The position numbers were made by a program, and so were the translations under genes. The notes beneath the pieces were generated by a model. It was not told the DNA's origin, searched no databases, and saw only the letters and a list, made by a program, of their open reading frames with translations. Of a DNA stretch of 64,000 bases, positions 4,784-56,020 are shown piece after piece (positions within the stretch are counted from its first letter, which is position 1; every line of letters starts with the position of its first letter). The stretch is from Candidatus Kaiserbacteria bacterium. GTDB taxonomy: Bacteria > Patescibacteriota > Minisyncoccia > Phycocordibacterales > UBA2100. The stretch is taken from positions 526,199 through 590,198 of the forward strand of contig CP070993.1 in the NCBI GenBank assembly GCA_017134395.1. Direction: 5' to 3'.

Positions 4784-5025
4784 AAAAATAGTTTCTTAAA
4801 AAATTACACTGAGTAAAAAATTCGACCAAACATATCAACAAAATCCATTCCGGAAGAAATGTATCCATTTTGCACAATTACTTGTTAAAAGTTTTTTAAT
4901 AATACATTGCATTATTTCGAAACTTTTAACTTCGTACTTGCACCAAAATTTTCATATTTCTTCTCGAAAGCAATTTTGCTGATATGTTGTGTATGTATCA
5001 TACAGTACGACTAACCAAGAATGCA

Positions 5026-5496: not shown

Positions 5497-6432
5497 ATGA
5501 GTTCTAGTCTCGAAAATAGTAAGCAAGAGTTCCTTGAATACCTAGAAATTGAGCGAGGGCGTGCTGTGAAGACAGTTGAAAACTATGATCGATACCTTGT
5601 TCGTTTTTTTGACCACACCAAAGTAAAGAACCCGAAAGATATAACTGAAACAAAAGTACGAGAATTCAGGCTTTGGCTTAACAGGCAAGTTACCCAAAAT
5701 GGAACAACAGTAAAGCGTAGAACACAAAACTATTATTTAATTGCTATTCGTGCATTTTTAAAGTTTTTACGAAAACGCGGTATCACGAGTCTTTCTCCTG
5801 AGCGTATTGAATTAGCAAAAGTTTCTCAGCGTGATCTTGATTTAATCACACGTAAAGAACTTCAGCGTCTTCTGGCTGCGCCAATGCGGGCGTATGAAGA
5901 GAGCGAAGATGAAGCAGTTAAATTACGGGCTATTCGTGACAATGCGATGTTACAACTCTTGTTTTCAACAGGCCTTCGTGTTTCAGAACTAACCTCACTA
6001 AATAGCGATATTGATCTTTCGAAAGATGAAATGTCAGTACGCGGTAAGGGTGACAAAGTGCGTGTTGTATTCTTTTCGCCCGAAGCAAAAAAAGCAGTTC
6101 AGAGATATTTAGATGAACGAAAAGATTTAGATGAAGCCCTGTTTGTAAATATGGGTCGCAACGCGAGCGAACACAATGATTTACGTCTTACTCCAAGAAG
6201 TGTGGAACGTGCAGTCAAACACTATGCAACTCGTGCTGGCATTACAAAAACAGTTACACCGCATGGCTTACGGCACAGTTTCGCAACCGATTTATTACAA
6301 AATGGAGCCGACATTCGTAGCGTGCAGGCACTACTTGGGCACGCTAATATTGCAACCACTCAAATATACACACACGTTACGGACAAACACCTTAAGGACA
6401 TTCACAGTAAGTTTCACAATAAAGGAAAGTAA
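5497..6432 (+). CDS. tyrosine site-specific recombinase, XerC/XerD type
   Basis: C-terminal catalytic motifs HGLRHSFATDLL … LLGHANIATTQIYTHV; N-terminal SAM-like domain (FLEYLEIERGRAVKTVENYDRYL). Confidence 0.85.
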   Translation: MSSSLENSKQEFLEYLEIERGRAVKTVENYDRYLVRFFDHTKVKNPKDITETKVREFRLWLNRQVTQNGTTVKRRTQNYYLIAIRAFLKFLRKRGITSLSPERIELAKVSQRDLDLITRKELQRLLAAPMRAYEESEDEAVKLRAIRDNAMLQLLFSTGLRVSELTSLNSDIDLSKDEMSVRGKGDKVRVVFFSPEAKKAVQRYLDERKDLDEALFVNMGRNASEHNDLRLTPRSVERAVKHYATRAGITKTVTPHGLRHSFATDLLQNGADIRSVQALLGHANIATTQIYTHVTDKHLKDIHSKFHNKGK

Positions 6433-8064: not shown

Positions 8065-9528
8065 CTAGGATACGTGATGCTTTTTTCGAAGCGCTTCTAT
8101 TTCTTTTTCGTCCTCTTCTTCCCTTCTGTCTTTTCCTTTTTCTCCAAGTTTTTGTAACTCGTTTATTGGCAATTGAGCTAATTCAGCAGCCCTGTCTTCA
8201 AGGTATTCAGGGGTGTTTTGTTTTGGCTCATCAAGAACCTCTTCAAGAAGTGCATGGAGTATCCATCCTACTTTTGGTCCTGGCCCGTCACCTAATATTT
8301 CAATAATTTTGTCGCCATTAATTTTGAGCATAGCAACTGAAATAGGATCACGAAGCGCTTCGTCAACCATGGATTTGTATTTGCGAAAACGAAATGGTTG
8401 TTCTTTTGGCCGGCCCGTACCAATGCGATCGCAGGTGCGTAATTCAAGCAGTTCCTGAATGTGGTCAACTCCAACATTTTGTATCATTCGACGAACTGCA
8501 CTGAGAGTTATTTGGTCAGGGTCGGAGAAAAACATATGCCAACGGACGAGCTTCTCTACGTTGTGTGCAGTATCTTTTGGAAATTTCAAGTCTCTTAATA
8601 TTTTGCGTGTCATACGCGCTCCAATAACTTCGTGCCCATAGAATGTGTAATCATTTTTTACTGTGTCACGACGTCGGCTTTCTGGTTTCCCTATGTCGTG
8701 TAGTAATGCAGCAAGGCGTACATCAAAAGAATAGTTTTTGTCTGCGGCATGCTGTAGGCTGCGCATAAGGTGTTCGAACACATCGTATGAATGCGCTTGG
8801 TTTTGCTCACATCCAATACCCTCTTTGAGTTCAGGAATGATGTATTCCATTAATCCTAAGCGTTGTGCAAAAAATACTGCCTGCATCGGCGTGTCTGATG
8901 CAACGATTCGCATGAGCTCGTCTCGTACGCGTTCTTGAGAAACTTTTTCAATAAGCTGCGCATGCTCTGCTATTGCCGAGGCAGTTTTTGATTCGATTGT
9001 GAAGTTGAGCTCAGCTGCAAGGCGTATTGCACGCATCATACGTAGTGCGTCCTCTGTAAAACGATCTGTAGCTTCCCCGACAGTAACAATACGTTTTAAT
9101 CGTATGTCCTCTACCCCTTTATATGGGTCTACAAGCTCGTCGCGCGTTGGATTGTATGCTATGGCATTCATCGTGAAATCACGTCGCTGTAGGTCGTCTG
9201 TGAGATTCTTGCTAAATGTTACTTCATCAGGATGGCGCGCGTTGCTGTATGTTGATTCGATTCTATAAGGGGTCACCTCGACCACTTTGAGCGTGGGGTC
9301 GTCAGACTCCGTTTTTACACCGACAGTCCCAAAATCATTTTCATAGAAAGAATCAGGAAATATTTTTTGAATTTCCTCAGGGTTAGCGTTTGTAGTAAGA
9401 TCCCAATCTTTAGGAATCTTGTTGCGTATAAGATCGCGCGTACAACCCCCTACGAGGTATGCTTCGAAACCAGCATTCTCTAATGTCGTAACAATGGTAA
9501 GAACTTCTTGCGGTACAGAGTGTCTCAT
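8065..9528 (-). CDS. cca: CCA-adding tRNA nucleotidyltransferase (pol-beta NTase head plus HD domain)
   Basis: N-terminal GGCTRDLI… NTase motif, HD motif LLHDIGK; 487 aa. Confidence 0.85.
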   Translation of the reverse strand: MRHSVPQEVLTIVTTLENAGFEAYLVGGCTRDLIRNKIPKDWDLTTNANPEEIQKIFPDSFYENDFGTVGVKTESDDPTLKVVEVTPYRIESTYSNARHPDEVTFSKNLTDDLQRRDFTMNAIAYNPTRDELVDPYKGVEDIRLKRIVTVGEATDRFTEDALRMMRAIRLAAELNFTIESKTASAIAEHAQLIEKVSQERVRDELMRIVASDTPMQAVFFAQRLGLMEYIIPELKEGIGCEQNQAHSYDVFEHLMRSLQHAADKNYSFDVRLAALLHDIGKPESRRRDTVKNDYTFYGHEVIGARMTRKILRDLKFPKDTAHNVEKLVRWHMFFSDPDQITLSAVRRMIQNVGVDHIQELLELRTCDRIGTGRPKEQPFRFRKYKSMVDEALRDPISVAMLKINGDKIIEILGDGPGPKVGWILHALLEEVLDEPKQNTPEYLEDRAAELAQLPINELQKLGEKGKDRREEEDEKEIEALRKKHHVS

Positions 9529-44984: not shown

Positions 44985-45518
44985 TTAGAGCGGGCTGCCT
45001 GGCGGTGTTGTTGTGCCACCGCTGACCGTATTGTTGATGGTTGTCGTTGGTCCGGTAACTGTTGGGTTTGCCGTCGCGGCCCCGCCAGCACCACCGGTTG
45101 CAGTGTTTGTGTTGGTGTTTGAGCCGCCAGTGCCAGTCGCCGTAGCGTTACCGCCTTCGGCCGAAGCATTGGAGTTGACGACAGTGTTATCGCTCTGACT
45201 CGATATTGCGTTACCGATGATCTTCGCTGCAACAACTGGCGTTACAATCGTACCGACGCCTTCAATGACCTGACCAACAACAGATTTACCACCGAATGAT
45301 GCCGTATAGACCGGCTTACACGGGCCTGATGTTCTGGTCCTGCAGACCCAGACGGTTGCCGTTGTCACCGTGGGCGATGCACCGCTGCCAGGTGACGTAC
45401 TGTACCTGTCGATTTGTTGCTGCCCATCCGGTGCTGGTGGGTGCCAGACCTCATGGGTGCCTGCAGAACATGCTGCAAGAAATCCCGTAAGAACAGCAAT
45501 CAAAAGAGCATTTCTCAT
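44985..45518 (-). CDS. putative lipoprotein, low-complexity (G/T/N/A-rich) secreted protein
   Basis: lipobox-like LTGFLAACSAG; locally GC-rich relative to flanks; sits antisense between fusA and tuf. Confidence 0.5.
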   Translation of the reverse strand: MRNALLIAVLTGFLAACSAGTHEVWHPPAPDGQQQIDRYSTSPGSGASPTVTTATVWVCRTRTSGPCKPVYTASFGGKSVVGQVIEGVGTIVTPVVAAKIIGNAISSQSDNTVVNSNASAEGGNATATGTGGSNTNTNTATGGAGGAATANPTVTGPTTTINNTVSGGTTTPPGSPL

Positions 45519-45882
45519 ATCTTATCCCTTTTTCTGTACAGATCGGAATTAATCTGTAGAACTCTAATTTTTACGAACTATGACCACAATGCTATATAAG
45601 CGGAGATATGTCAATAATTTGCAATTAAACTGCCCATATCGAATATCGCACATATATGTGATACTTATACGAAGTAGTGTGAGGTGGTGTTTTATAGAGC
45701 GGCTTTTCTGCTTGACTCGACACATGGTTTTGCTACCATGTGCCCACGCGTGTTGCGCGCTTTTTTATATTGCGTGCAGAGTGTGTAATTAATAATGCGA
45801 TTGCACAATGTAGGGAAGCTTCTCGCGCCTCTACATTGGGTAATCGTCGGGATATATTCCCACTAATAATAAACGTAATTTT

Positions 45883-47079
45883 ATGGCAGAAGCATTTGAC
45901 CGTTCAAAGCCTCACCTAAACGTTGGAACAATTGGTCACGTCGACCACGGAAAGACAACGCTTACCGCGGCTATTTTGAACTCACTTCATCTTTCAGGTC
46001 AGACTGTAAAGATGAAGAAAATCGATGAAATCGATAACGCTCCAGAAGAAAAGGAGCGAGGTATTACAATCGCTCTATCTCACAACGAGTACGAGACAGC
46101 AGATCGTCACTATGCGCACATTGACGCGCCTGGTCACGCCGACTACATTAAAAACATGATCACTGGTGCCGCACAGATGGACGGTGCTATTCTTGTGGTA
46201 GCCGCAACTGACGGTTTGATGCCACAGACACGTGAGCACATTCTTCTTGCAAAGCAGGTAGGTGTTCCACGAATCATTGTCTTCTTGAACAAGACAGACA
46301 TGCCTGATGTTGACGAAGAAATGATTGAACTCGTTGAAGAGGAAATCCGCGAAGACCTTACAAAGTACGGTTTTGATGGTGAGAACACACCATTCATCCG
46401 TGGTTCAGCTCTTAAGGGATCTGAAGCGACTGATGTAAACGACGAATGGGTACAAAAGATCCTTGAGCTTACAAAGTCTATGGACGAGTACTTTGAAGTA
46501 CCAAAGCGAGAGACTGACAAGCCATTCCTTATGCCTATTGAGGACGTATTCTCAATCGAAGGACGCGGTACAGTTGTTACCGGTCGTATCGAACAAGGTA
46601 AAGTGAAAATTGGTGAAGAAGTTGAAATCGTTGGTATTAAAGAGACTACAAAGACAACAATCACTGGTATTGAAATGTTTAACAAGCAACTTGAAGAGGG
46701 TCTTGCAGGAGACAACGCAGGAATCCTACTTCGTGGTACAAAGAAAGAAGATGTACACCGAGGGCAAGTTCTTGCAGCAAGCGGTTCGATTACACCCCAC
46801 ACAGAGTTTGAAGCGGAAGTATACGTACTTTCAAAGGAAGAAGGTGGACGTCACACTCCATTCTTCTCAGGGTACAAGCCGCAATTCTACATGCGAACCA
46901 CAGACGTAACTGGAGAGGTAACACTTCCAGACGGAACTGAAATGGTTATGCCAGGAGACACTGCAACCTTTAAAGTGAAGCTTGTAGGACCTATTGCTCT
47001 TGACGAACAAATGAAGTTCACTGTTCGTGAAGGTGGACGTACAGTTGGTGCTGGTGTACTAACAAAGATAGTTGCCTAA
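45883..47079 (+). CDS. tuf: elongation factor Tu
   Basis: [14 protein letters not shown]…, 398 aa. Confidence 0.97.
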
Positions 47080-47141
47080 CAACTAACGTAGCTAAAAACT
47101 TGCAATAAACACAACTACACAGTATTGTGTGCGAACGTTCT

Positions 47142-47495
47142 ATGACAGTAACAGAGAAAAAAACAAAAAAAGCAGCAGCAAAGGGAGGCGCAGAGCGTCT
47201 TCGAATACGGGTTCGTGCATACGAACACAAGCTGCTGGATGTATCAGTGAAACAAATCATCGATACCGCATTTCGTTTTGAGGCTGAAGTTCGAGGTCCT
47301 GTGCCACTTCCTACAGAAATTAAGAAGTACACAGTAAACCGTTCAACTTTTGTCCACAAAGACGCGCGAGAACAATTCGAGATGCGCGTACATAAACGAT
47401 TGATTGAAATCCTACATCCAAATCCTAAAGTTATTGAGGCGCTTACAAACATCAGTTTGCCAGCAGGAGTCTCAATTGACGTTAAGATGGTGTAA
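47142..47495 (+). CDS. rpsJ: 30S ribosomal protein S10
   Basis: RLRIRVRAYEHKLLDVSVKQII…PLPTEIKKYTV. Confidence 0.9.
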   Translation: MTVTEKKTKKAAAKGGAERLRIRVRAYEHKLLDVSVKQIIDTAFRFEAEVRGPVPLPTEIKKYTVNRSTFVHKDAREQFEMRVHKRLIEILHPNPKVIEALTNISLPAGVSIDVKMV

Positions 47496-47520
47496 TAATT
47501 CTCTGCGAAAGCTACTATAC

Positions 47521-47548
47521 AAAAAACCGCCCCCAGGGGCGGTTTTTT
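47521..47548. terminator. intrinsic terminator immediately after rpsJ
   Basis: aaaaaaccgcccc-cagg-ggcggtttttt. Confidence 0.75.
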
Positions 47549-47591
47549 GTATGCAACATATTAATCCCGTAAATTTCTGTAGTTAAAGCGA

Positions 47592-47627
47592 TTAAACCAC
47601 CAAAACGCATGCGTTTTGGTGGTTTAA
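47592..47627. repeat. perfect 36-bp palindrome between rpsJ and rplC
   Basis: ttaaaccaccaaaacgca|tgcgttttggtggtttaa. Confidence 0.7.
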
Positions 47628-47761
47628 CTTGCATCATAAAAATCTTCATGTATACTCTTTGAGTCTTAAAAGACGGCTACGTCCCCTTGAGAGTGTTCTC
47701 ATGAGGAACCAATGGCACTAAGCGAGCTGCTCAGTGTTATTGAGTAGCATTTTTTATACCC

Positions 47762-48370
47762 ATGAAATTCATTCTTGCAACAAAACAGAAGATGACTCAG
47801 ATATTCGATGAAACAGGAAAGGTATTTCCTGCAACTGTTGTAAGTGCTGGTCCGGTTACCGTTACTCAAGTAAAGAACGCAGACGTAGATGGTTACGAAT
47901 CTGTACAGATCGGTTTTGGTGAAGAAAAAGAAAAGAATTTAAAGAAGGCACAAAAAGGACACTTTGGAGATCTTGGATCTTTCAAAACACTTCGTGAGTT
48001 CCGCGTACCAAATGGTGAAGTACAAAAAGGAGATGTTATTGACGCTACTGCTTTTGAAATAGGCGACAAGGTTACGGTCAGTGCTATCAGTAAAGGTAAG
48101 GGAAACCAAGGTGTGGTAAAGCGCCATAACTTTGCAGGAGGAAACCGAACTCATGGTAACAAGCACTCAGAGCGACGTCCTGGTTCTATTGGTTCTACTG
48201 GTCCTCAGCGCGTGTTGAAGGGTCTAAAAATGATGGGGCGCATGGGTAGCGATCGTGTTACCGTGAAGAACTTGAAGGTTCTACAAATCGACAAAGATAC
48301 CAACACATTGGTAATTTCAGGGGCAATTCCTGGTCGCCCTGGAACATTAATTGAGATTCATCACGCATAG
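47762..48370 (+). CDS. rplC: 50S ribosomal protein L3
   Basis: canonical L3. Confidence 0.95.
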   Translation: MKFILATKQKMTQIFDETGKVFPATVVSAGPVTVTQVKNADVDGYESVQIGFGEEKEKNLKKAQKGHFGDLGSFKTLREFRVPNGEVQKGDVIDATAFEIGDKVTVSAISKGKGNQGVVKRHNFAGGNRTHGNKHSERRPGSIGSTGPQRVLKGLKMMGRMGSDRVTVKNLKVLQIDKDTNTLVISGAIPGRPGTLIEIHHA

Positions 48371-48373
48371 CCT

Positions 48374-49060
48374 ATGAAATCAGATATTTACACACAAGAA
48401 GGAAAGAAGAAGGGCAGTGTTGAATTACCAGCATCAGTATTTGAAGCTGCATGGAAGAGTTCACTTGTACACCAAGTGGTAGTAGGAATGCAGGCAAACG
48501 CACGTACTCCAATTGCTCACACAAAGATTCGTAGTGAAGTAAAAGGTGGTGGAAAGAAACCTTGGAAACAAAAAGGAACTGGACGAGCACGACATGGTTC
48601 AAGCCGAAGTCCTATTTGGAGGGGTGGTGGAGCAACATTTGGTCCACGAAACGATAAGATTTTCGCAAAGAAGATCAACCGAAAGATGCGAACACAGGCA
48701 CTCTACAGCGTGCTTTCTCGAAAAGTTAAGGAAGGACAAGTGCTTTTTGTAGACTCACTTACTTTTGAGGCGCCAAAGGCATCACAAGCACATACGGTGA
48801 TTGCTAACCTTGCAGGTGTATCAGGGTTTGAAACTTTAGCATCAAAGAAGCACAATACAGCACTGATTGTTCTTGCAGAAAAGAACGTAAACATACAAAA
48901 GAGCTTCAGTAACTTTGGTAACATAAAGGTTGGACTTACAGAAAACCTCAACACAGTAGATGCGTTGAAGTACAAGAGTTTGATTATCGTTTCACCAGAG
49001 GAAAGTATTAAAGCACTTGAGGAGCGAGCAGAAATATCTCGTATAAATGAAACAGAATAG
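48374..49060 (+). CDS. rplD: 50S ribosomal protein L4
   Basis: canonical L4. Confidence 0.93.
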   Translation: MKSDIYTQEGKKKGSVELPASVFEAAWKSSLVHQVVVGMQANARTPIAHTKIRSEVKGGGKKPWKQKGTGRARHGSSRSPIWRGGGATFGPRNDKIFAKKINRKMRTQALYSVLSRKVKEGQVLFVDSLTFEAPKASQAHTVIANLAGVSGFETLASKKHNTALIVLAEKNVNIQKSFSNFGNIKVGLTENLNTVDALKYKSLIIVSPEESIKALEERAEISRINETE

Positions 49061-49063
49061 CGT

Positions 49064-49477
49064 ATGGCATCATTATTTGGAAAAAAAGAAGAAGAAAAGA
49101 ATCCGCCAGCTGGCGGAGAGGAAGCTACACCGGTAGTTGAGGCAACCAAAAAAGAAACAAAGGCTGTAACGCACAAGGCTGTTGTTGATGGAAAAGAAGA
49201 CATTGCACGTGTATTGGCTCAACCACGTATGACAGAGAAAGCTACGCTTGGTATCGATAAGGGCGTATACGTATTCAATGTTGCACCTGATACAAACAAG
49301 AAGCAGATTAAGGAAGCCATCAAACTTGTATACAAGGTTGATCCGGTTAAGATTCATGTGACTACAATCCGTCGTAAGAGTGTTCGAAATTCACGCACTG
49401 GAATGAAGGGAGTAAAATCAGGAGGCAAAAAAGCCTACGTGTACCTTAAAAAGGGTGACACAATTTCACTAATGTAA
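49064..49477 (+). CDS. rplW: 50S ribosomal protein L23 (with N-terminal extension)
   Basis: …VLAQPRMTEKATLG…VYVFNVAPDTNKKQIKEAI…. Confidence 0.9.
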   Translation: MASLFGKKEEEKNPPAGGEEATPVVEATKKETKAVTHKAVVDGKEDIARVLAQPRMTEKATLGIDKGVYVFNVAPDTNKKQIKEAIKLVYKVDPVKIHVTTIRRKSVRNSRTGMKGVKSGGKKAYVYLKKGDTISLM

Positions 49478-49479
49478 GT

Positions 49480-50322
49480 ATGAAAAAGCATAAGCCAATA
49501 ACACCAGGTCGTCGCGGGATGACACGAGTTTCATACAAAGCTAAAGTTACGGTAAGTAAGCCTCTAAAGGCACTTACTAAAGGAATGAAGCGTGGAGTAG
49601 GACGAAACTCAGCAGGACGCATTACTACTCGACACAAAGGTGGTGGACACAAGCGCCGATGGCGAGAGATTGACTTCAGGTACGATAAGATTGGAATTCC
49701 AGCTAAAATCGAGACTGTTGAATACGATCCAAACCGAACTGCATACATTGGTCTCGCACTTTACGCAGATGGAGAACGACGTTACGTTGTTATCCCCAAG
49801 TCTGTAGAGGTAGGACACGAGTTCCTTATCGCAGAAGATGCACCGGTAAAGCCTGCAGGACGTCTACCATTAGGAAAGATTCCAATTGGAACATTCATCT
49901 ATAATATTGAAATAAAGCCAAATGGCGGTGCAAAATTGGCACGTTCTGCTGGAAACTATGCAGAAGTTATTGCTCACGACGCAGGATACACTCAAATCAA
50001 GATGCCTTCGTCAGAAGTTCGAAAAATATTGAGTACGGCATGGGCATGCATTGGTGAAGTTTCAAACGATGAACACAAGCTTGTAACTATCGGAAAAGCT
50101 GGGCGTGCACGACACATGGGACGCCGTCCAACAGTTCGTGGTGCTGCCATGAACGCCGTAGATCACCCACATGGTGGTGGTGAAGGTAAAGCAGGACGTG
50201 GACACCGTCGCGCACGAAGTAAGTGGGGTAAGCCTACAGGAAAGGGGCAGAAGACTCGAAAAGCAAAGAAATACTCAAACACACTTATTGTTCGTCGCCG
50301 AAAGGTTGGCAAAAAGCGATAA
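49480..50322 (+). CDS. rplB: 50S ribosomal protein L2
   Basis: canonical L2 (…HPHGGGEGK…). Confidence 0.95.
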   Translation: MKKHKPITPGRRGMTRVSYKAKVTVSKPLKALTKGMKRGVGRNSAGRITTRHKGGGHKRRWREIDFRYDKIGIPAKIETVEYDPNRTAYIGLALYADGERRYVVIPKSVEVGHEFLIAEDAPVKPAGRLPLGKIPIGTFIYNIEIKPNGGAKLARSAGNYAEVIAHDAGYTQIKMPSSEVRKILSTAWACIGEVSNDEHKLVTIGKAGRARHMGRRPTVRGAAMNAVDHPHGGGEGKAGRGHRRARSKWGKPTGKGQKTRKAKKYSNTLIVRRRKVGKKR

Positions 50323-50323
50323 T

Positions 50324-50357
50324 AAAAAAACCGACAGCTCTGCTGTCGGTTTTTTTA
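50324..50357. terminator. intrinsic terminator directly after rplB
   Basis: aaaaaaaccgacagc-tctg-ctgtcggttttttt. Confidence 0.8.
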
Positions 50358-50360
50358 TTC

Positions 50361-50407
50361 AGATAAAGTAAAAGGCCTCACGAATACATTCGCGAGGCCT
50401 TTTTTAG
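50361..50407. repeat. direct repeat unit 1 (contains a terminator hairpin)
   Basis: agataaagtaaaaggcctcacgaatacattcgcgaggccttttttag; ~90% identical to 51069-51116. Confidence 0.8.
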
Positions 50408-50429
50408 CGCTTAGGAACTTTTGAGATAG

Positions 50430-50990
50430 TTACCAATACGCGAACGGATCTTGCCATTCGGGGTATTTCTCATCAAGCCAAGCCAGAGCTTGTTTCCAAC
50501 ACCCACTCTCTTTGTGCTTACCTATATCTTCGTAAGTACCTGGAATTGAACGTATGACCTTTGCGCTTTCGGTATTTTGAATTGCAAAAAGGTCATTGGT
50601 CGGCAAGGTCCGATCTATAATTATTGTCGAACAGGGGACACCTTCATCTCCGCCAAGCATGTTATTGTATGGGCGAAAGCGTGTCAGTAATGTCGTGTGA
50701 TATTCTGGTGAACGATCACCGACATTTACATTAACTTCACCTCGACAACGATGCTGGTCGTCGAAGAGGCCTTTGGTTTCCCACCCTTTTTCCTCATGAG
50801 GTATCGTACCTATTGTCCAGCCATGAGGCAGAGAATGGCAATAAACATGACCGCCTGCTTTTTCGAGAACAAAACCCGCAGCCTGCATTTTTTTGAAATG
50901 TTCGTCAGGAAAACGATACGGTTCTCTTTCAGCTCGCCGTGGGGCAAGTTCGAAATAGACATAGTTAAGATCAATGTACTCATTAGGCAT
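50430..50990 (-). CDS. hypothetical protein (186 aa, His/Cys/Trp-containing, enzyme-like) antisense inside the S10 operon
   Basis: strong SD AGGAGG 6 nt before the ATG; no family recognised. Confidence 0.55.
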   Translation of the reverse strand: MPNEYIDLNYVYFELAPRRAEREPYRFPDEHFKKMQAAGFVLEKAGGHVYCHSLPHGWTIGTIPHEEKGWETKGLFDDQHRCRGEVNVNVGDRSPEYHTTLLTRFRPYNNMLGGDEGVPCSTIIIDRTLPTNDLFAIQNTESAKVIRSIPGTYEDIGKHKESGCWKQALAWLDEKYPEWQDPFAYW

Positions 50991-51068
50991 AGTAACCTCC
51001 TGTGGTTATTTCCTAAAATTAGAGTACAGCTTTTGACTATTTTAAGCAATGCTATTTCGAATTTAAGA

Positions 51069-51116
51069 AGATAAAAAGTAAAAGGCCTCACGAATACATC
51101 CGTGAGGCCTTTTGGA
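51069..51116. repeat. direct repeat unit 2 (contains a terminator hairpin)
   Basis: agataaaaagtaaaaggcctcacgaatacatccgtgaggccttttgg. Confidence 0.8.
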
Positions 51117-51128
51117 GTTTGAAGGTGT

Positions 51129-51344
51129 TTATTTATTTAGAGACTTAAGCTCTGCGCGATACTCATTCAAACGTTCTTGCAGCTCAATTTCTTGTTGCCC
51201 TGCAGCCTCTTCGATAGCTTCTTCAACCCGACCGATTGCGAGTAGAACCGCAAATTTGCAATCGAAAAGATCACGTTCATGGTCGCCTGCTTTTTCGGGT
51301 TCAATGGTGGTACCATCTCTAGAAACAGTGTAGCGAGTTTCCAT
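51129..51344 (-). CDS. small acidic hypothetical protein (71 aa)
   Basis: SD AAAGGAG 7 nt before the ATG; METRYTVSRDGTTIEPEKAGDHERDLFDCKF…; ends just before repeat unit 2. Confidence 0.5.
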   Translation of the reverse strand: METRYTVSRDGTTIEPEKAGDHERDLFDCKFAVLLAIGRVEEAIEEAAGQQEIELQERLNEYRAELKSLNK

Positions 51345-51440
51345 GTACAAGCTCCTTTCTGTACAAGGCACATTCAAGGTACCAAAACTCATAGTATGCT
51401 GCATATATATTTCCGCAAGGGGCGCAGGAGCACAATAAGA

Positions 51441-51469
51441 TTGACTTATCGGCCAATTTCGCATAGTAT
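51441..51469 (+). promoter_or_regulatory. sigma70-like promoter TTGACT-17-TAGTAT upstream of rpsS
   Basis: ttgact tatcggccaatttcgca tagtat; restarts rightward transcription after the antisense cassette. Confidence 0.5.
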
Positions 51470-51553
51470 ATGCGGCACGCCACTGAGGCGGCTTTTTATT
51501 GCAAAGCGAGAGGAGCTCACAAGCCTCTCTGTACAGGCAATATATCCAACAAT

Positions 51554-51883
51554 ATGACACGATCAATAAAAAAAGGACCTTACGTCGACGCTAAGTTGAT
51601 GAAAAAAATTACCGGAAAAACTCCAGAAGATAGTGGGGTAATTAACACGTGGGCACGTGGAAGTGATATCGCACCAGAAATGGTAGGGTTTACATTTGGT
51701 GTACACAACGGACGAAAGCACATTGATGTGCTCGTTACTGACGATATGGTAGGACACAAACTTGGTGAATTTTCACCAACTAAGACGTTCCACCGACATG
51801 GAGGTAAGATGCAGAAGGAGCTTGAGGTAAAGAAGAAAGAAGCTGAAGTAACTGCAGCAAAAGCTGCGAAAGCAGCAGCATAA
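51554..51883 (+). CDS. rpsS: 30S ribosomal protein S19 (with C-terminal K/A-rich extension)
   Basis: [12 protein letters not shown]…[17 protein letters not shown]. Confidence 0.93.
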
Positions 51884-51891
51884 TACGTAGT

Positions 51892-52221
51892 ATGAAAGCA
51901 TTTTTGAAAAATTACTCACAATCACCACGCAAGGTACGCCTTGTAGCTGATTTGATACGTGGAAAAGATGCGCAACACGCACGTGCTATTTTGTCATTTA
52001 TGGACAAAAAATCAGCACCTGACCTTAAAAAGCTTCTTGAATCAGCACTTGCAAACGCTGTAGACCAAAAAAAGAATACAGAAGATTTGATAGTAAAAGA
52101 AATATTTGTTGATTCAGCAGGAGGAGCACTACGTCGTTGGCGTCCACGTGCTTTCGGCCGCGCTGCACCATTTCGCCGTCGTTCAAGTAAAATAACCCTT
52201 CAATTAGGGGAAAAAGAATAA
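51892..52221 (+). CDS. rplV: 50S ribosomal protein L22
   Basis: canonical L22. Confidence 0.93.
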   Translation: MKAFLKNYSQSPRKVRLVADLIRGKDAQHARAILSFMDKKSAPDLKKLLESALANAVDQKKNTEDLIVKEIFVDSAGGALRRWRPRAFGRAAPFRRRSSKITLQLGEKE

Positions 52222-52222
52222 T

Positions 52223-52891
52223 ATGACACACACTGTACATCCATATGCCCACCGTTTAGGAATTATTCGCGACTGGAAGTCACGATGGTTTGGAACAAGT
52301 GCGAAACAATACCGCGAGAATCTTCGTGTAGACACATTGGTACGTACATATCTTACAAAGCGACTACGTGGGCTCTATGTAACTGCTCTTGAAATTGAGC
52401 GAGGCGAAAAAGAGCTTCGTCTAAACATCAAAACGTCACGTCCTGGTATGGTTATCGGACGCTCAGGAGAGGGTACACAGAAGCTTCTTGTTGATATTAC
52501 CAAGCAACTACGAAAACTTCGCCTCGGTGATGATATGCCAAAGGTAAAGATTGACGTTGAAGAAGTACGTTCGCCAGAATCTCACGCTGCTATCGTTGCG
52601 TACATGGTTGCTGAAGGGCTCGAAAAACGAATGCCGCATCGTCGTATCTTAAAGCAAACAGTTGAAAAGGTTATGGCTAACCGAGACGTTAAAGGAGTAC
52701 GTATTGCACTTGCCGGACGACTTGGAGGAGCTGAAATGGCACGTCGTGAAGAAATTAAGCGCGGACGAATTCCACTGCAGACATTCCGAGCAGACATCGA
52801 TTACGCAAAAGAAAAGGCCTATCTTCCATACGGTATCGTTGGAATTAAGGTGTGGGTATACCGCGGAGATATTTTCGAAGACACTAAATAG
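52223..52891 (+). CDS. rpsC: 30S ribosomal protein S3
   Basis: canonical S3 (KH domain). Confidence 0.95.
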   Translation: MTHTVHPYAHRLGIIRDWKSRWFGTSAKQYRENLRVDTLVRTYLTKRLRGLYVTALEIERGEKELRLNIKTSRPGMVIGRSGEGTQKLLVDITKQLRKLRLGDDMPKVKIDVEEVRSPESHAAIVAYMVAEGLEKRMPHRRILKQTVEKVMANRDVKGVRIALAGRLGGAEMARREEIKRGRIPLQTFRADIDYAKEKAYLPYGIVGIKVWVYRGDIFEDTK

Positions 52892-52902
52892 ATTGAGCGC
52901 GT

Positions 52903-53322
52903 ATGTTATTTCCTAAAAAAGCAAAATACCGAAAGTGGCAAACTGGCCGCAAAAATGCCAAGAAACTTGCACGTCCTGAAACACGTGGAGTAGAGGTAGC
53001 TTTTGGTGCATACGGCCTTAAGGCAATGGGGCAAGCACGTATTACCTCAAACCAAATCGAGGCATCACGAAAGGTCATTACACGTACTATTGGAAAGCTT
53101 GGAAAGATGTGGATTCGCATCTTCCCAGATCGACCGTTTACTCAAAAAGCGGCTGAAGTAGGTATGGGTAAGGGAAAGGGTGACCCACAAGGGTACGTGA
53201 CTGATGTTCGAGCTGGACGAATTTTGTTTGAAGTTGATGGTGTCTCAGAAGAAGTGGCACGCGTTGCTCTGCGTAAGGCGAGCATGAAGATGCCAATCAA
53301 AACTAAGATTGTGGCCCGATAA
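52903..53322 (+). CDS. rplP: 50S ribosomal protein L16
   Basis: MLFPKKAKYRKWQTGR…. Confidence 0.95.
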   Translation: MLFPKKAKYRKWQTGRKNAKKLARPETRGVEVAFGAYGLKAMGQARITSNQIEASRKVITRTIGKLGKMWIRIFPDRPFTQKAAEVGMGKGKGDPQGYVTDVRAGRILFEVDGVSEEVARVALRKASMKMPIKTKIVAR

Positions 53323-53327
53323 TTTGT

Positions 53328-53519
53328 ATGAAAGATTTAAAGAAAAAAAGTGATAAAGATTTAGAGAAGCTTATACGTGAAAAGCGTGAGGAGTTACGTG
53401 AGTTCCGCTTTAAGAGTGCTGGCTCACGTACACGGAATGTCCGGGAAGGGCGCAATACACGAAAAGAAATTGCACAAATTTTGACTGAACTTACACTTCG
53501 GACTAAAGTAGCAAAATAA
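53328..53519 (+). CDS. rpmC: 50S ribosomal protein L29
   Basis: MKDLKKKSDKDLEKLIREKREELREFRFK. Confidence 0.9.
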   Translation: MKDLKKKSDKDLEKLIREKREELREFRFKSAGSRTRNVREGRNTRKEIAQILTELTLRTKVAK

Positions 53520-53521
53520 TT

Positions 53522-53788
53522 ATGGAAGATACAAACACACAAAAAGCAGGAAAGACATTGCGCGGCACCGTAGTAGGTGTTGAGATGAAAGATACTGCGA
53601 AAGTAGCCGTTGCTCGATACGTAAAGCATCCTAAGTACAAGAAGTTCATCAAGCAGGTGAAGAAGTTCTTGGTGCATGATCCAGAAAATACTGCTTCAGT
53701 GGGGGACAAGGTAGTTATTCGTGAATCACGACCAATATCAAAGCGTAAAAACTTTGTGCTCGAGAGCAACGAAAGCACAACTAAGTAA
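53522..53788 (+). CDS. rpsQ: 30S ribosomal protein S17
   Basis: …LRGTVVGVEMKDTAKVAV…. Confidence 0.93.
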   Translation: MEDTNTQKAGKTLRGTVVGVEMKDTAKVAVARYVKHPKYKKFIKQVKKFLVHDPENTASVGDKVVIRESRPISKRKNFVLESNESTTK

Positions 53789-53793
53789 CATAT

Positions 53794-54165
53794 ATGATTC
53801 AACCGCAAACAATAGTAAAAATCACCGATAACTCAGGAGGTAAAATTGCCCGCGTTTTCAAAGTACTCGGTGGATCAAAACGACGGTACGCACGTATTGG
53901 AGATGAGGTGGTTATTGCTGTACAAAGTGCAGAACCACGAAAGCAGGTAAAGAAGAAAGATGTACTGCGCGCTGTTGTAGTACGACAAGTACAGCCGTTT
54001 CGTCGTCGCGATGGTTCATACATTCGCTTTGACGAAAACGCTGTAGTGATTGTTGAAAAAGGAAAGAAAGAACCAAAGGCAAACCGTGTATTTGGTCCTA
54101 TTCCTCGAGAGATTTCAGAACGTGGTTATCAGAAAATCGTGTCGCTTGCACCTGAAGTAGTATAG
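53794..54165 (+). CDS. rplN: 50S ribosomal protein L14
   Basis: MIQPQTIVKITDNSGGK…. Confidence 0.95.
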   Translation: MIQPQTIVKITDNSGGKIARVFKVLGGSKRRYARIGDEVVIAVQSAEPRKQVKKKDVLRAVVVRQVQPFRRRDGSYIRFDENAVVIVEKGKKEPKANRVFGPIPREISERGYQKIVSLAPEVV

Positions 54166-54168
54166 ATT

Positions 54169-54483
54169 TTGAATATGAAGATTAAAAAAGGAGACAAAGT
54201 AATAGTTATCGCAGGGAAAGACAAAGGAAAGTCTGGGGCGGTACTTCGCGCACTTCCACGAGAAGACAAGGTGATTGTTGAGGGTGTAAACGTTGCTAAG
54301 CGTCACCAAAAAGCACGTCGCGGAGGAGAAAGTGGACAAATTATCGACAAAACACTTCCCGTACACATTTCAAACGTTGCGCTCGCCGACCCTAAGGGTG
54401 GAAAGCCAACTCGAATTGGCATTGAACGCAAAGACGGAAAGCGTGTACGAGTTGCTAAGAAGAGTGGAACAGTAATAAAGTAA
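54169..54483 (+). CDS. rplX: 50S ribosomal protein L24 (start may be the Met at 54175)
   Basis: [19 protein letters not shown]…. Confidence 0.92.
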
Positions 54484-54484
54484 T

Positions 54485-55027
54485 ATGGAAACACTAGCTG
54501 AAAAACAAACAAATATGTTCAAAGCGCTTAAAGAGCGTTTTGGATACAAGAGCATTATGCAAACACCAAAGCTCGATAAAATCGTTATCTCTGCAAAGGT
54601 TGGTTCAATGAACGACAAAAACAAGATTGCACTTGTCGTTGATCGTCTTGCAAAAATTACCGGACAGCAGCCAAAAGCAAACCCTGCTAAGAAGTCAATT
54701 GCTACGTTCAAATTACGAGAAGGAACTATTATTGGGTACTCTGTAACGCTGCGAGGACAACGAATGCGTAATTTCCTCGACAAACTCATTCATGTTGCAC
54801 TTCCTCGAACACGTGACTTCCGCGGATTAGAGGTAACTGCAATTGATGAGATGGGCAATTACACTATTGGTATTAAAGAACACACTATTTTCCCAGAAAC
54901 TTCTGATGAAGATCTTCGAGACGTATTTGGACTTGGTGTGACACTTGTCACAACCGCAAAAACAAAAGAAGAAGCAGAAGCATTCTTGCGAGAAATCGGA
55001 CTTCCTCTAAAGAAAACAGCAGAATAA
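54485..55027 (+). CDS. rplE: 50S ribosomal protein L5
   Basis: canonical L5. Confidence 0.95.
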   Translation: METLAEKQTNMFKALKERFGYKSIMQTPKLDKIVISAKVGSMNDKNKIALVVDRLAKITGQQPKANPAKKSIATFKLREGTIIGYSVTLRGQRMRNFLDKLIHVALPRTRDFRGLEVTAIDEMGNYTIGIKEHTIFPETSDEDLRDVFGLGVTLVTTAKTKEEAEAFLREIGLPLKKTAE

Positions 55028-55097
55028 ACTAAAAACCGACTCTTAGGGTCGATTTTTTATATCTACGTAGGTACTTAGCGCTGATTACATACAAGAG

Positions 55098-55137
55098 TCA
55101 TAAACCATCAGAATGCAGGCATTCTGATGGTTTATGA
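55098..55137. repeat. near-perfect 40-bp palindrome in the rplE-rpsZ gap
   Basis: gtcataaaccatcagaatgc-ag-gcattctgatggtttatgag (17-bp perfect arms). Confidence 0.7.
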
Positions 55138-55190
55138 GACACTGTCGTGCTTAATCATTAAGGCGTGTATTTCCACTCTCGTTACCTTTA

Positions 55191-55219
55191 TTGACTTTGT
55201 ATACCACCTCAGGTAATAT
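55191..55219 (+). promoter_or_regulatory. sigma70-like promoter TTGACT-17-TAATAT inside the spc cluster, ~220 nt upstream of rpsZ
   Basis: ttgact ttgtataccacctcagg taatat; the leader has several small hairpins (tgacctttaatcaaaaggtca, ctacaaagactctttgtag, cgtttaggaacg). Confidence 0.5.
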
Positions 55220-55444
55220 GCTCGCACCTGAAGAAGGTCACAGTTTCATGCGTGCAAGAAGGATTGCACAAAACACAGCTACAAAGACTCTTTGTAGCCA
55301 ACATGAGTGACCTTTAATCAAAAGGTCAATTTTAAATAAGGAACAGAGTTTTACGAAGTAAAACGACAATTCCGAATTTATGCCGCGCACTTCGTGACGT
55401 TTAGGAACGTTAGTGCAGCCGGCTAAAAAGAACATATCAATATT

Positions 55445-55631
55445 TATGGCAAAGAAATCAATGATTGCGCGAGCACAAAAGACACCGAAATTCCTTTCGC
55501 GTGTTGTTCGCCGTTGTTTCAAGTGTGGACGCCCACGAGGCTACATGCGTGCTTTTGACCTGTGTCGTATCTGCTTCCGAGAAGAGGCACTAGAAGGACA
55601 CATCCCCGGAATTAAGAAATCATCATGGTAG
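55445..55631 (+). CDS. rpsZ: 30S ribosomal protein S14 type Z (zinc-binding)
   Basis: [12 protein letters not shown]…[23 protein letters not shown] (C-x-x-C … C-x-x-C), 61 aa. Confidence 0.93.
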
Positions 55632-56020
55632 GCGACCCGATAGGAGACTTCATAGTGCGTTTAAAGAACGCCGGCGCAGTAAAGCACGAAGGTGTGGCAC
55701 TTCCGCATTCTAAGATGAAAATGGCTGTTGCTGAAGTTCTTAAGAATGCTGGATTCATCAAGTCTGTTGAAAAGCAAGGAAAGAAGATTCGAAAGACTAT
55801 TCATGTTGAACTTATGTATAAAGAAGATGGAACACCACGTATTACAGAAGTGAAGCGTGTTTCAAAGCCGGGACGTCGTGTATACAAAGGAGCAGATGAA
55901 ATTTTTCCTGTGCGTTACGGTAAAGGAATGCTCGTGCTCTCAACACCAAAAGGTATTTTGACAGATTCACAGGCACGAAAGGAGCGAGTTGGAGGAGAGG
56001 CGTTATTTGAAATTTGGTAA
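55625..56020 (+). CDS. rpsH: 30S ribosomal protein S8
   Basis: canonical S8. Confidence 0.95.

Follow-up and report, generated by a model that had tools for sequence, protein, structure and literature searches.

In most bacteria, the ribosomal protein genes rplB and rpsS are adjacent and co-transcribed within the S10 operon. Why, then, are they separated by more than a kilobase and by two genes on the opposite strand in the DNA described here? The window, by which we mean the whole 64-kb stretch analysed, carries the str/S10/spc ribosomal gene cluster and comes from a 688-kb contig, with locus tags JXR01_03040/03045, of a Candidatus Kaiserbacteria metagenome-assembled genome (MAG). In it, the last base of rplB is 50322 and the first of rpsS is 51554, which leaves a gap of 1231 nucleotides (nt), in agreement with the distance of about 1.2 kb between the L2 and S19 genes given in an earlier note on this DNA. 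That note saw a foreign module wedged inside a working S10 operon. We find instead that the break occurs throughout the class, together with its terminator, promoter and leader, and we consider it probable that the rplB-rpsS interval is an inter-operon spacer and a hot spot for cargo, occupied here by two minus-strand genes that are independent of each other.

A class-wide break between rplB and rpsS

We surveyed loci near close L2 homologues in metagenome assemblies, together with 80 species-representative genomes whose L2 proteins are 61-95% identical to that of the window, and calculated gap statistics over the 64 non-redundant Paceibacteria loci that carry both rplB and rpsS. The gap has a median length of 650 nt and ranges from 61 to 3892 nt (below 100 nt in 6 loci, 100-299 nt in 12, 300-999 nt in 26 and at least 1 kb in 20). 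About 14 more loci have no rpsS in the downstream sequence at hand, which amounts to less than 1 kb in four and to 2-4 kb in about ten. A classical tight rplB-rpsS junction occurs in 0 of the 64 loci, and the empty site with adjacent genes that an insertion into an intact operon would leave in relatives does not appear among them. A promoter of the form TTGAC(A/T)-16/17-TAnnnT lies upstream of rpsS in 58/64 loci; in these 58, a hairpin of 4-7 bp, rich in guanine and cytosine (GC) and followed by a U-tract, starts 4-9 nt past the -10 hexamer, at the predicted 5' end of the mRNA. Gaps as short as 70-100 nt still hold both promoter and hairpin. Because the gap, the promoter and the hairpin recur across these loci, even where the gap is short, the operon boundary at rplB|rpsS appears to be ancient in the class Paceibacteria. 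In our literature searches, no account of such a split in the Candidate Phyla Radiation (CPR) came up.

The S10 operon of E. coli, from rpsJ to rpsQ, is one transcript with an L4-controlled attenuator in its leader. The window keeps the classical gene order (rpsJ-rplC-rplD-rplW-rplB-rpsS-rplV-rpsC-rplP-rpmC-rpsQ), and in both systems a leader hairpin with a U-tract precedes a ribosomal-protein unit. A single-transcript S10 operon has a tight rplB-rpsS junction and no internal terminator or promoter. In contrast, the gap is at least 61 nt in the 64 relatives, and the window's cluster is cut by a terminator and a promoter after rplB, after rpsJ and after rplE. The window's hairpin also lies at the very 5' end of the predicted rpsS transcript, and the tuf leader is of the same type. 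By this comparison, the design of the two leaders would be better explained by a general stabiliser of 5' ends, or by a regulator that both units share, than by an attenuator of the L4 type. The cuts after rpsJ and rplE lie at 47495-47762 and 55027-55447, with long leaders ahead of rplC and rpsN, and locus L003 has an additional 117-amino-acid (aa) gene between rpsJ and rplC.

Anatomy of the interval

The features of the interval and its flanks are as follows; promoters, terminators and leader elements are predictions.

49480..50322, plus strand: rplB (L2), which closes the upstream transcription unit (PF00181/PF03947; 88-95% identity in relatives)
50321..50359, both strands: perfect bidirectional intrinsic terminator 3' of rplB (A7-stem-T7; 18-bp stem, -23.4 kcal/mol, z = -10)
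50361..50407, minus strand: hairpin repeat copy 1, terminator of the 186-aa gene (15-bp stem, -23.9 kcal/mol in minus-strand RNA)
50430..50990, minus strand: 186-aa gene, a genome-specific open reading frame (ORF) of an uncharacterised family
50996..51000, minus strand: Shine-Dalgarno sequence GGAGG of the 186-aa gene, read from the sequence
51021..51049, minus strand: weak candidate promoter of the 186-aa gene (TTGCTT-17-TACTCT), picked out by eye and below the promoter-scan threshold
51069..51116, minus strand: hairpin repeat copy 2, terminator of the 71-aa gene (15-bp stem, -23.6 kcal/mol)
51129..51344, minus strand: 71-aa gene, an ORF for an acidic small protein (pI 4.6), lineage-conserved resident of the spacer
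51352..51357, minus strand: Shine-Dalgarno sequence AAGGAG of the 71-aa gene, read from the sequence
51391..51418, minus strand: candidate promoter for the 71-aa gene (TTGCGG-16-TACTAT), divergent from the rpsS promoter that it backs onto
51441..51469, plus strand: rpsS promoter (TTGACT-17-TAGTAT), found by promoter scan, with a counterpart in 58/64 related species
51476..51553, plus strand: rpsS leader, with a 5'-terminal hairpin, U5 and P1/P2 and without a Shine-Dalgarno sequence
51478-51490 and 51493-51497: leader hairpin (CGCC/GGCG) and U5
51497-51502 and 51537-51542: leader helix P1 (UAUUGC/GCAAUA), around a variable P2
51554..51883, plus strand: rpsS (S19), first gene of the downstream transcription unit (95% identity in L005)

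The local observations of the earlier note, namely the intrinsic terminator 3' of rplB, the strong Shine-Dalgarno sites of the two minus-strand genes and the separate rpsS promoter, are all borne out, and counterparts homologous to the rplB terminator are present in L005, L003 and L011.

From these signals we infer that each unit is transcribed separately, and we propose the following arrangement. The bidirectional terminator would end the rpsJ-rplB unit, and the conserved sigma-70-type promoter would start the rpsS unit with its 5'-terminal hairpin, U-tract and structured leader. Accessory genes would come and go in the spacer between species; it may have become a hot spot because insertions there leave ribosomal-protein expression uninterrupted. 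The 71-aa gene would be an old, fast-evolving resident, transcribed divergently from a promoter back-to-back with that of rpsS. The 186-aa gene would have entered downstream of it, by a Campbell-type single crossover or an unequal exchange at the terminator. This recombination would have duplicated the small gene's terminator module of about 45 nt, and each gene would now end in its own copy.

The rpsS promoter and leader

The stems of the 5'-terminal hairpin are clade-specific with the pairing kept (CGCC/GGCG, AGCUC/GAGCU, CCCGC/GCGGG). The window's subclade has an extra 55-nt structured leader in which P1 encloses the variable P2, and RNAalifold on eight subclade leaders gave 18 pairs, 6 of them with compensatory changes. 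An Rfam search over 45000-56000 returned no leader match, just sub-threshold terminator-like matches. Examples of the promoter, hairpin and U-tract motif upstream of rpsS are those of L016 (4964-4990), L061 and L023. In many species, the ATG of rpsS follows the hairpin and U-tract by 6-20 nt, without a Shine-Dalgarno sequence.

5'-terminal stem-loops are known to stabilise bacterial mRNAs, as in the E. coli ompA and B. subtilis aprE leaders. The Paceibacteria rpsS hairpin resembles these in lying within a few nt of the predicted transcription start (58/64). Unlike them, it is always followed by a U-tract, which gives it the look of a terminator, and often directly by an ATG without a Shine-Dalgarno sequence.

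The tuf leader of the window (45712-45790) is built like the rpsS leader (51441-51502). It consists of TTGACT-16-TACCAT, 8 nt, the hairpin GCGTG/CGCGC, U6 and TATATTGCG, and its rpsS counterpart reads CACGCC..GGCGGC-U5-ATTGC. Within the 64 kb, 2/9 TTGACN promoters have such a promoter-hairpin-U-tract leader, those of tuf and rpsS. Such a leader might act as a 5' stabiliser, or as a regulator site, common to translation genes that are highly expressed. A different motif, ATTCCGAATTTATGCCGCGCACTTCGTGACG...CGTTAGTGCAGCCGGC, in the rpsN leader (window 55358-55420) is found again upstream of rpsS in L011 (about 5740-5900), where it stands in place of the promoter and hairpin that are usual elsewhere; a further copy, more degenerate, immediately precedes it. 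This motif, which has no Rfam match, is a candidate cis-regulatory RNA.

Variable gene content in the spacer

Counting ORFs of at least 45 aa, the gaps hold 166 ORFs, of which 105 are singletons and the rest fall into a few small families. The cargo includes SAICAR synthetase (PurC; L005 and L010), pyruvate kinase (L014), peptidoglycan-binding and GH43-like proteins with a ParE-type pair (L009), DUF3298 proteins (11 loci) and a 2H phosphoesterase (L099). Even among the nearest relatives, with L2 proteins 88-95% identical, the gap content is different in every species: the 186-aa gene and the small gene in the window, PurC and the small gene in L005, the small gene alone in L003, a 352-aa secreted-looking protein and the small gene in L101, a 137-aa unknown protein alone in L001, the phosphoesterase alone in L099 and more than 3.6 kb of cargo in L009.

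The concept of chromosomal integration hot spots between conserved core genes was reportedly set out by Oliveira, Touchon and Rocha in 2017. The present interval is like such hot spots in that the same core genes, rplB and rpsS, bracket it in 64/64 loci around a gene content that varies among related genomes, and in that its cargo includes a gene of a viral-contig family and a toxin-antitoxin (TA) module. It is unlike them in that its flanks are normally adjacent, co-transcribed S10 genes, no integrase or tRNA is involved and the cargo is small, usually one to three genes. As to mobile origin, the family of the 186-aa protein occurs on four viral contigs and in a prophage-like region, and L009 has the ParE pair; yet the window's insert has the same GC content as the host, and housekeeping genes (PurC, pyruvate kinase) make up much of the cargo elsewhere. 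A reading of the interval as a compositional island was rejected on the same grounds (insert GC 0.42-0.46, as in the host).

Two of these loci deserve a separate description. The PurC genes lie antisense between rplB and rpsS in two Kaiserbacteria species (L005 4940-5773 and L010 3211-4044, both minus strand) and represent a purine-biosynthesis gene within an otherwise reduced genome. In L009, a 3.3-kb insert after rplB encodes two peptidoglycan-binding proteins, one with the GH43-like domain, together with the ParE-type pair, and is bounded by a repeat of the rplB 3' end (46 nt, 87% identity; 4791-4836 and 8120-8165). This flanking repeat is an att-like duplication with no integrase.

The 71-aa gene

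Positional homologues of the 71-aa gene occur in 7 other species, on the same strand and in the same place, always divergent from the rpsS promoter. They form two groups. The first consists of L005 (54% identity) and L003 (39-41%), with BLASTP E-values of 1e-16 to 1e-23; the second consists of proteins of about 90 aa at the same position in L008, L011, L012, L013 and L101. The groups are bridged by the L101 protein, which is 46% identical to that of L005 over 50 aa, and by hhalign (probability 72%, P = 3e-5, vs 0.33 for a reversed control). A TTGCG-16-TAnnAT element is shared at the matching place in the window, L005 and L003, and the N-terminal motifs YT(V/I)SRDG and IGR(I/V)EE of the protein are kept. 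The gene evolves fast, at 54% identity where L2 and S19 show 95%, and it is missing from L001/L002 and L099, which retain the promoter and leader. These comparisons indicate an old, dispensable resident of the slot; the protein is acidic and probably helical. A word-indexed homologue search returned the query itself only, and a metagenome scan returned just the L005 organism again.

The position of the 71-aa gene might be selected rather than incidental. Its product would then have a function linked to the rpsS unit, with which the gene shares the divergent promoter region; it might be a regulator or a ribosome-associated factor. The 186-aa gene would still be unrelated cargo. The gene stands directly divergent from the rpsS promoter in 8 species, with the -35 hexamers 22 nt apart in the window, and its N-terminal motifs are conserved. 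We nevertheless judge such a tie unlikely: L001/L002 and L099 keep the promoter and leader without the gene, its divergence far exceeds that of L2 and S19, and the protein has no recognisable nucleic-acid-binding domain.

The 186-aa gene and its family

The 186-aa gene is absent from every relative examined. A word-indexed search of 5.8 billion clusters with its protein found the query alone, and phmmer against 1.84 billion representatives found five relatives (E = 1e-5 to 7e-4). Their shared motifs, which the window's protein also has, are G(F/V)xF, LPxGW, D..GR.R and a C-terminal A..WLD..YPxWxDPxAYW; residues P24, G39, P55, D77, W171, Y176, P177, W179, P182, Y185 and W186 are invariant. By these motifs, the gene appears to be a real, divergent member of an uncharacterised LPxGW / YPxWxDPxAYW family. 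The earlier note had called the protein His/Cys/Trp-rich and enzyme-like. Its composition (8 His, 4 Cys, 6 Trp) justifies the first term; the second does not survive, as the family alignment contains no invariant His or Cys, and we rejected the enzyme reading on this basis.

A pattern scan of IMG/VR returned five matching loci, with tblastn E-values of 6e-8 to 2e-4 against the viral loci. On four viral contigs of 62-127 kb, a full-length homologue lies inside same-strand arrays of small genes; at the fifth locus, L095, the plus-strand ORF was not recovered. Among the phmmer relatives, P0124 adjoins a serine recombinase and a cI-like repressor, a prophage-like early region, and P0127 is part of an extended run of small uncharacterised ORFs, among them DUF3085, DUF6927 and GP88-like genes. 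These contexts make a phage origin of the gene likely, and its product is most likely a non-enzymatic accessory protein of such origin. The viral homologues have no match in PHROGs or Pfam, and a tblastn search against GenBank phages gave none. As the earlier note had it, neither protein of the gap falls into a recognised family: both lack matches in Pfam, NCBIfam, PADLOC and PHROGs (E <= 0.01) and in PDB profile searches. AlphaFold gave an unusable model of the 186-aa protein from the single sequence (predicted local distance difference test, pLDDT, 35) and a model with pLDDT 63 from eight sequences.

Relationship between the two genes

The earlier note had also recognised the layout of a TA or immunity pair, by which the 71-aa and 186-aa proteins would have been inserted as one module. 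The layout exists, with a small acidic protein encoded upstream of a larger one on the same strand as in type II TA modules such as ParDE, and a bona fide ParE-type pair in the same hot spot of L009 shows how a TA module looks in this slot. The two coding sequences also share an in-frame 27-nt patch (50846-50872 and 51278-51304), 22/27 identical with 14 consecutive exact matches, that encodes LEKAGGH in one and PEKAGDH in the other (P about 0.0004 by shuffles). The homology of the window to L005 ends at this patch, which is possibly a short gene-conversion tract.

Three points, however, make pairing very improbable. The 138 nt that separate the genes contain a strong predicted terminator, a 15-bp hairpin of -23.6 kcal/mol followed by a U-tract; the genes are not found together elsewhere; and in the searches above, no TA or defence family was matched by either protein. 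None of the 7 other species with the 71-aa family has the 186-aa gene, and where the 186-aa protein has relatives, no small gene is consistently present upstream, nor is there a 71-aa-like neighbour. Type II TA genes are co-transcribed without a terminator and recur as a pair in other genomes; the window's genes are divided by one, have each their own Shine-Dalgarno sequence and do not recur together.

The duplicated terminator and a proposed entry of the 186-aa gene

The 186-aa gene is flanked by direct repeats at 50365-50403 and 51075-51113 (39 nt, 95% identity; about 47 nt with one indel), which contain the hairpin sequence AAAGGCCTCACGAATAC. None of 100 shuffles gave a match, and no further copies occur within the 64 kb. 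Each copy forms a 15-bp hairpin of about -24 kcal/mol in minus-strand RNA, followed by a U-tract, and is placed exactly where the terminator of the minus-strand gene upstream should be. The two substitutions that separate the copies produce G.U pairs in minus-strand RNA and A.C mismatches in plus-strand RNA; because the pairing survives in the minus-strand RNA only, the hairpins would have been kept as terminators of the minus-strand genes.

The nearest genome, L005 (UBA2100), is 93-94% identical to the window at 50200-50402 and 51300-51700, and between these blocks it is unalignable with the window save for the hairpin module. Its only hairpin copy, at the same site, has the left flank of copy 1 (cagataaagt) and the right flank of copy 2 (ggagtttgaa, to the stop codon); window 51075-51131, comprising the hairpin and the right flank to the stop codon, matches L005 4885-4942. 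A single copy in L005 with split flank matches would result if a segment of 710 bp, made up of the 186-aa gene, the region upstream of it and one hairpin, had entered at the small gene's terminator and duplicated it. The repeat-flanked insertion footprint that the earlier note described holds for the 186-aa gene, which looks recent and is absent from the relatives examined. It does not hold for the 71-aa gene, an older resident rather than part of the same insert. Nor are the repeats generic terminators reused at many loci: among the surveyed loci, the hairpin occurs in the window and L005 and in no other.

Other gap cargo is also flanked by direct repeats, measuring 46 nt in L009 (the copy of the rplB 3' end), 98 nt in L020, 59 nt in L030 and 27 nt in L070, where the repeat is another terminator. 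Campbell-type single-crossover integration and unequal crossing-over leave direct repeats of the homology segment. The window's insert, flanked by repeats of the local terminator module, and the duplicated rplB 3' end in L009 are like the products of such events; the differences are that the homology here is only about 40-50 nt long and that no circular donor was observed. A single crossover or unequal recombination at short homology would be the mechanism. The features of a transposable element, whether a miniature inverted-repeat transposable element or an insertion sequence, are missing: there is no transposase-like ORF, the flanks are 39-47-nt direct-repeat hairpins, and the copies number two in the 64 kb and one in L005.

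Alternatively, the hairpins could be the recombination sites, similar to attC or to repetitive extragenic palindromic elements, of a cassette-capture system that loads genes site-specifically into the slot. The same imperfect palindrome does lie 3' of each minus-strand gene, and a different terminator hairpin is duplicated around the cargo of L070. We give this little credence, given that we noticed no integrase within the slot or next to it (no search was made beyond the window), that the hairpin is limited to the window and L005 while other species use unrelated hairpins or other local repeats such as the rplB 3' end in L009, and that the hairpins are canonical terminators with U-tracts. That the whole arrangement is an assembly or binning artefact is scarcely credible: the source is a MAG, but the same architecture with 93-94% identical flanks recurs in the independent assemblies L005, L097 and L098, the 39-nt imperfect repeat is too short for misjoins and the contig is 688 kb long.

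Several observations weigh against our preferred account, in which a phage-derived gene entered an inter-operon spacer by short-homology recombination. The hairpin in L005 is followed by purC and not by the small gene, the ancestral site with the hairpin and small gene only was not observed, and no recombinase or circular intermediate is known for the insertion. The search for extra hairpin copies covered 64 kb of the 688-kb genome. Three of the five phmmer relatives of the 186-aa protein lie in ordinary chromosomal contexts, its eight-sequence structural model is moderate and fold searches were uninformative, and the candidate promoter of its gene is weak (3/6 and 3/6 positions).

Wider reading

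What is odd about this locus is not one cassette. Throughout the class, these ultra-small CPR genomes have redrawn the boundaries within the most conserved operon of bacteria, and this change would turn the rplB|rpsS spacer into a natural hot spot where strain-specific genes collect. We regard the class-wide split, with its conserved promoter and 5'-hairpin leader, and the resulting hot spot as the most interesting result. The spacer is a defined and easily found place for CPR accessory genes, including phage-derived genes and TA modules. The conserved promoter and leader could serve expression work in these uncultivated organisms, and the two uncharacterised protein families are offered for testing. 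As a caution, CPR contigs with blocks of ribosomal-protein markers may carry unrelated cargo.

A bolder proposition joins four parts, and we doubt that all of them hold together. First, the S10, str and spc clusters would have been re-cut into short units across Paceibacteria. Second, at least the rpsS and tuf units would share a leader made of promoter, 5'-terminal hairpin and U-tract. Third, the spacers would be dedicated, recurrent gene-capture slots, in which short-homology recombination duplicates the local terminator. Fourth, the 71-aa protein would be a hitherto unrecognised factor linked to the rpsS unit, and the 186-aa protein would be the founding member, on the cellular side, of a family that phages carry and that acts on the host.

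Other features of the cluster

The fusA|tuf spacer of the window (977 nt) holds a minus-strand ORF at 44985-45518 for a 177-aa lipoprotein-like protein (MRNALLIAVLTGFLAAC...) with a tail rich in Thr, Gly and Asn. The same spacer is about 260 nt long in L001 and L003 and has no ORF; the 177-aa ORF is a second lineage-specific antisense gene of the translation cluster. The L23 protein (49064-49477) is extended at its N-terminus by about 40 aa in which Glu, Lys and Ala are abundant, and measures 137 aa here and 123-159 aa among relatives.

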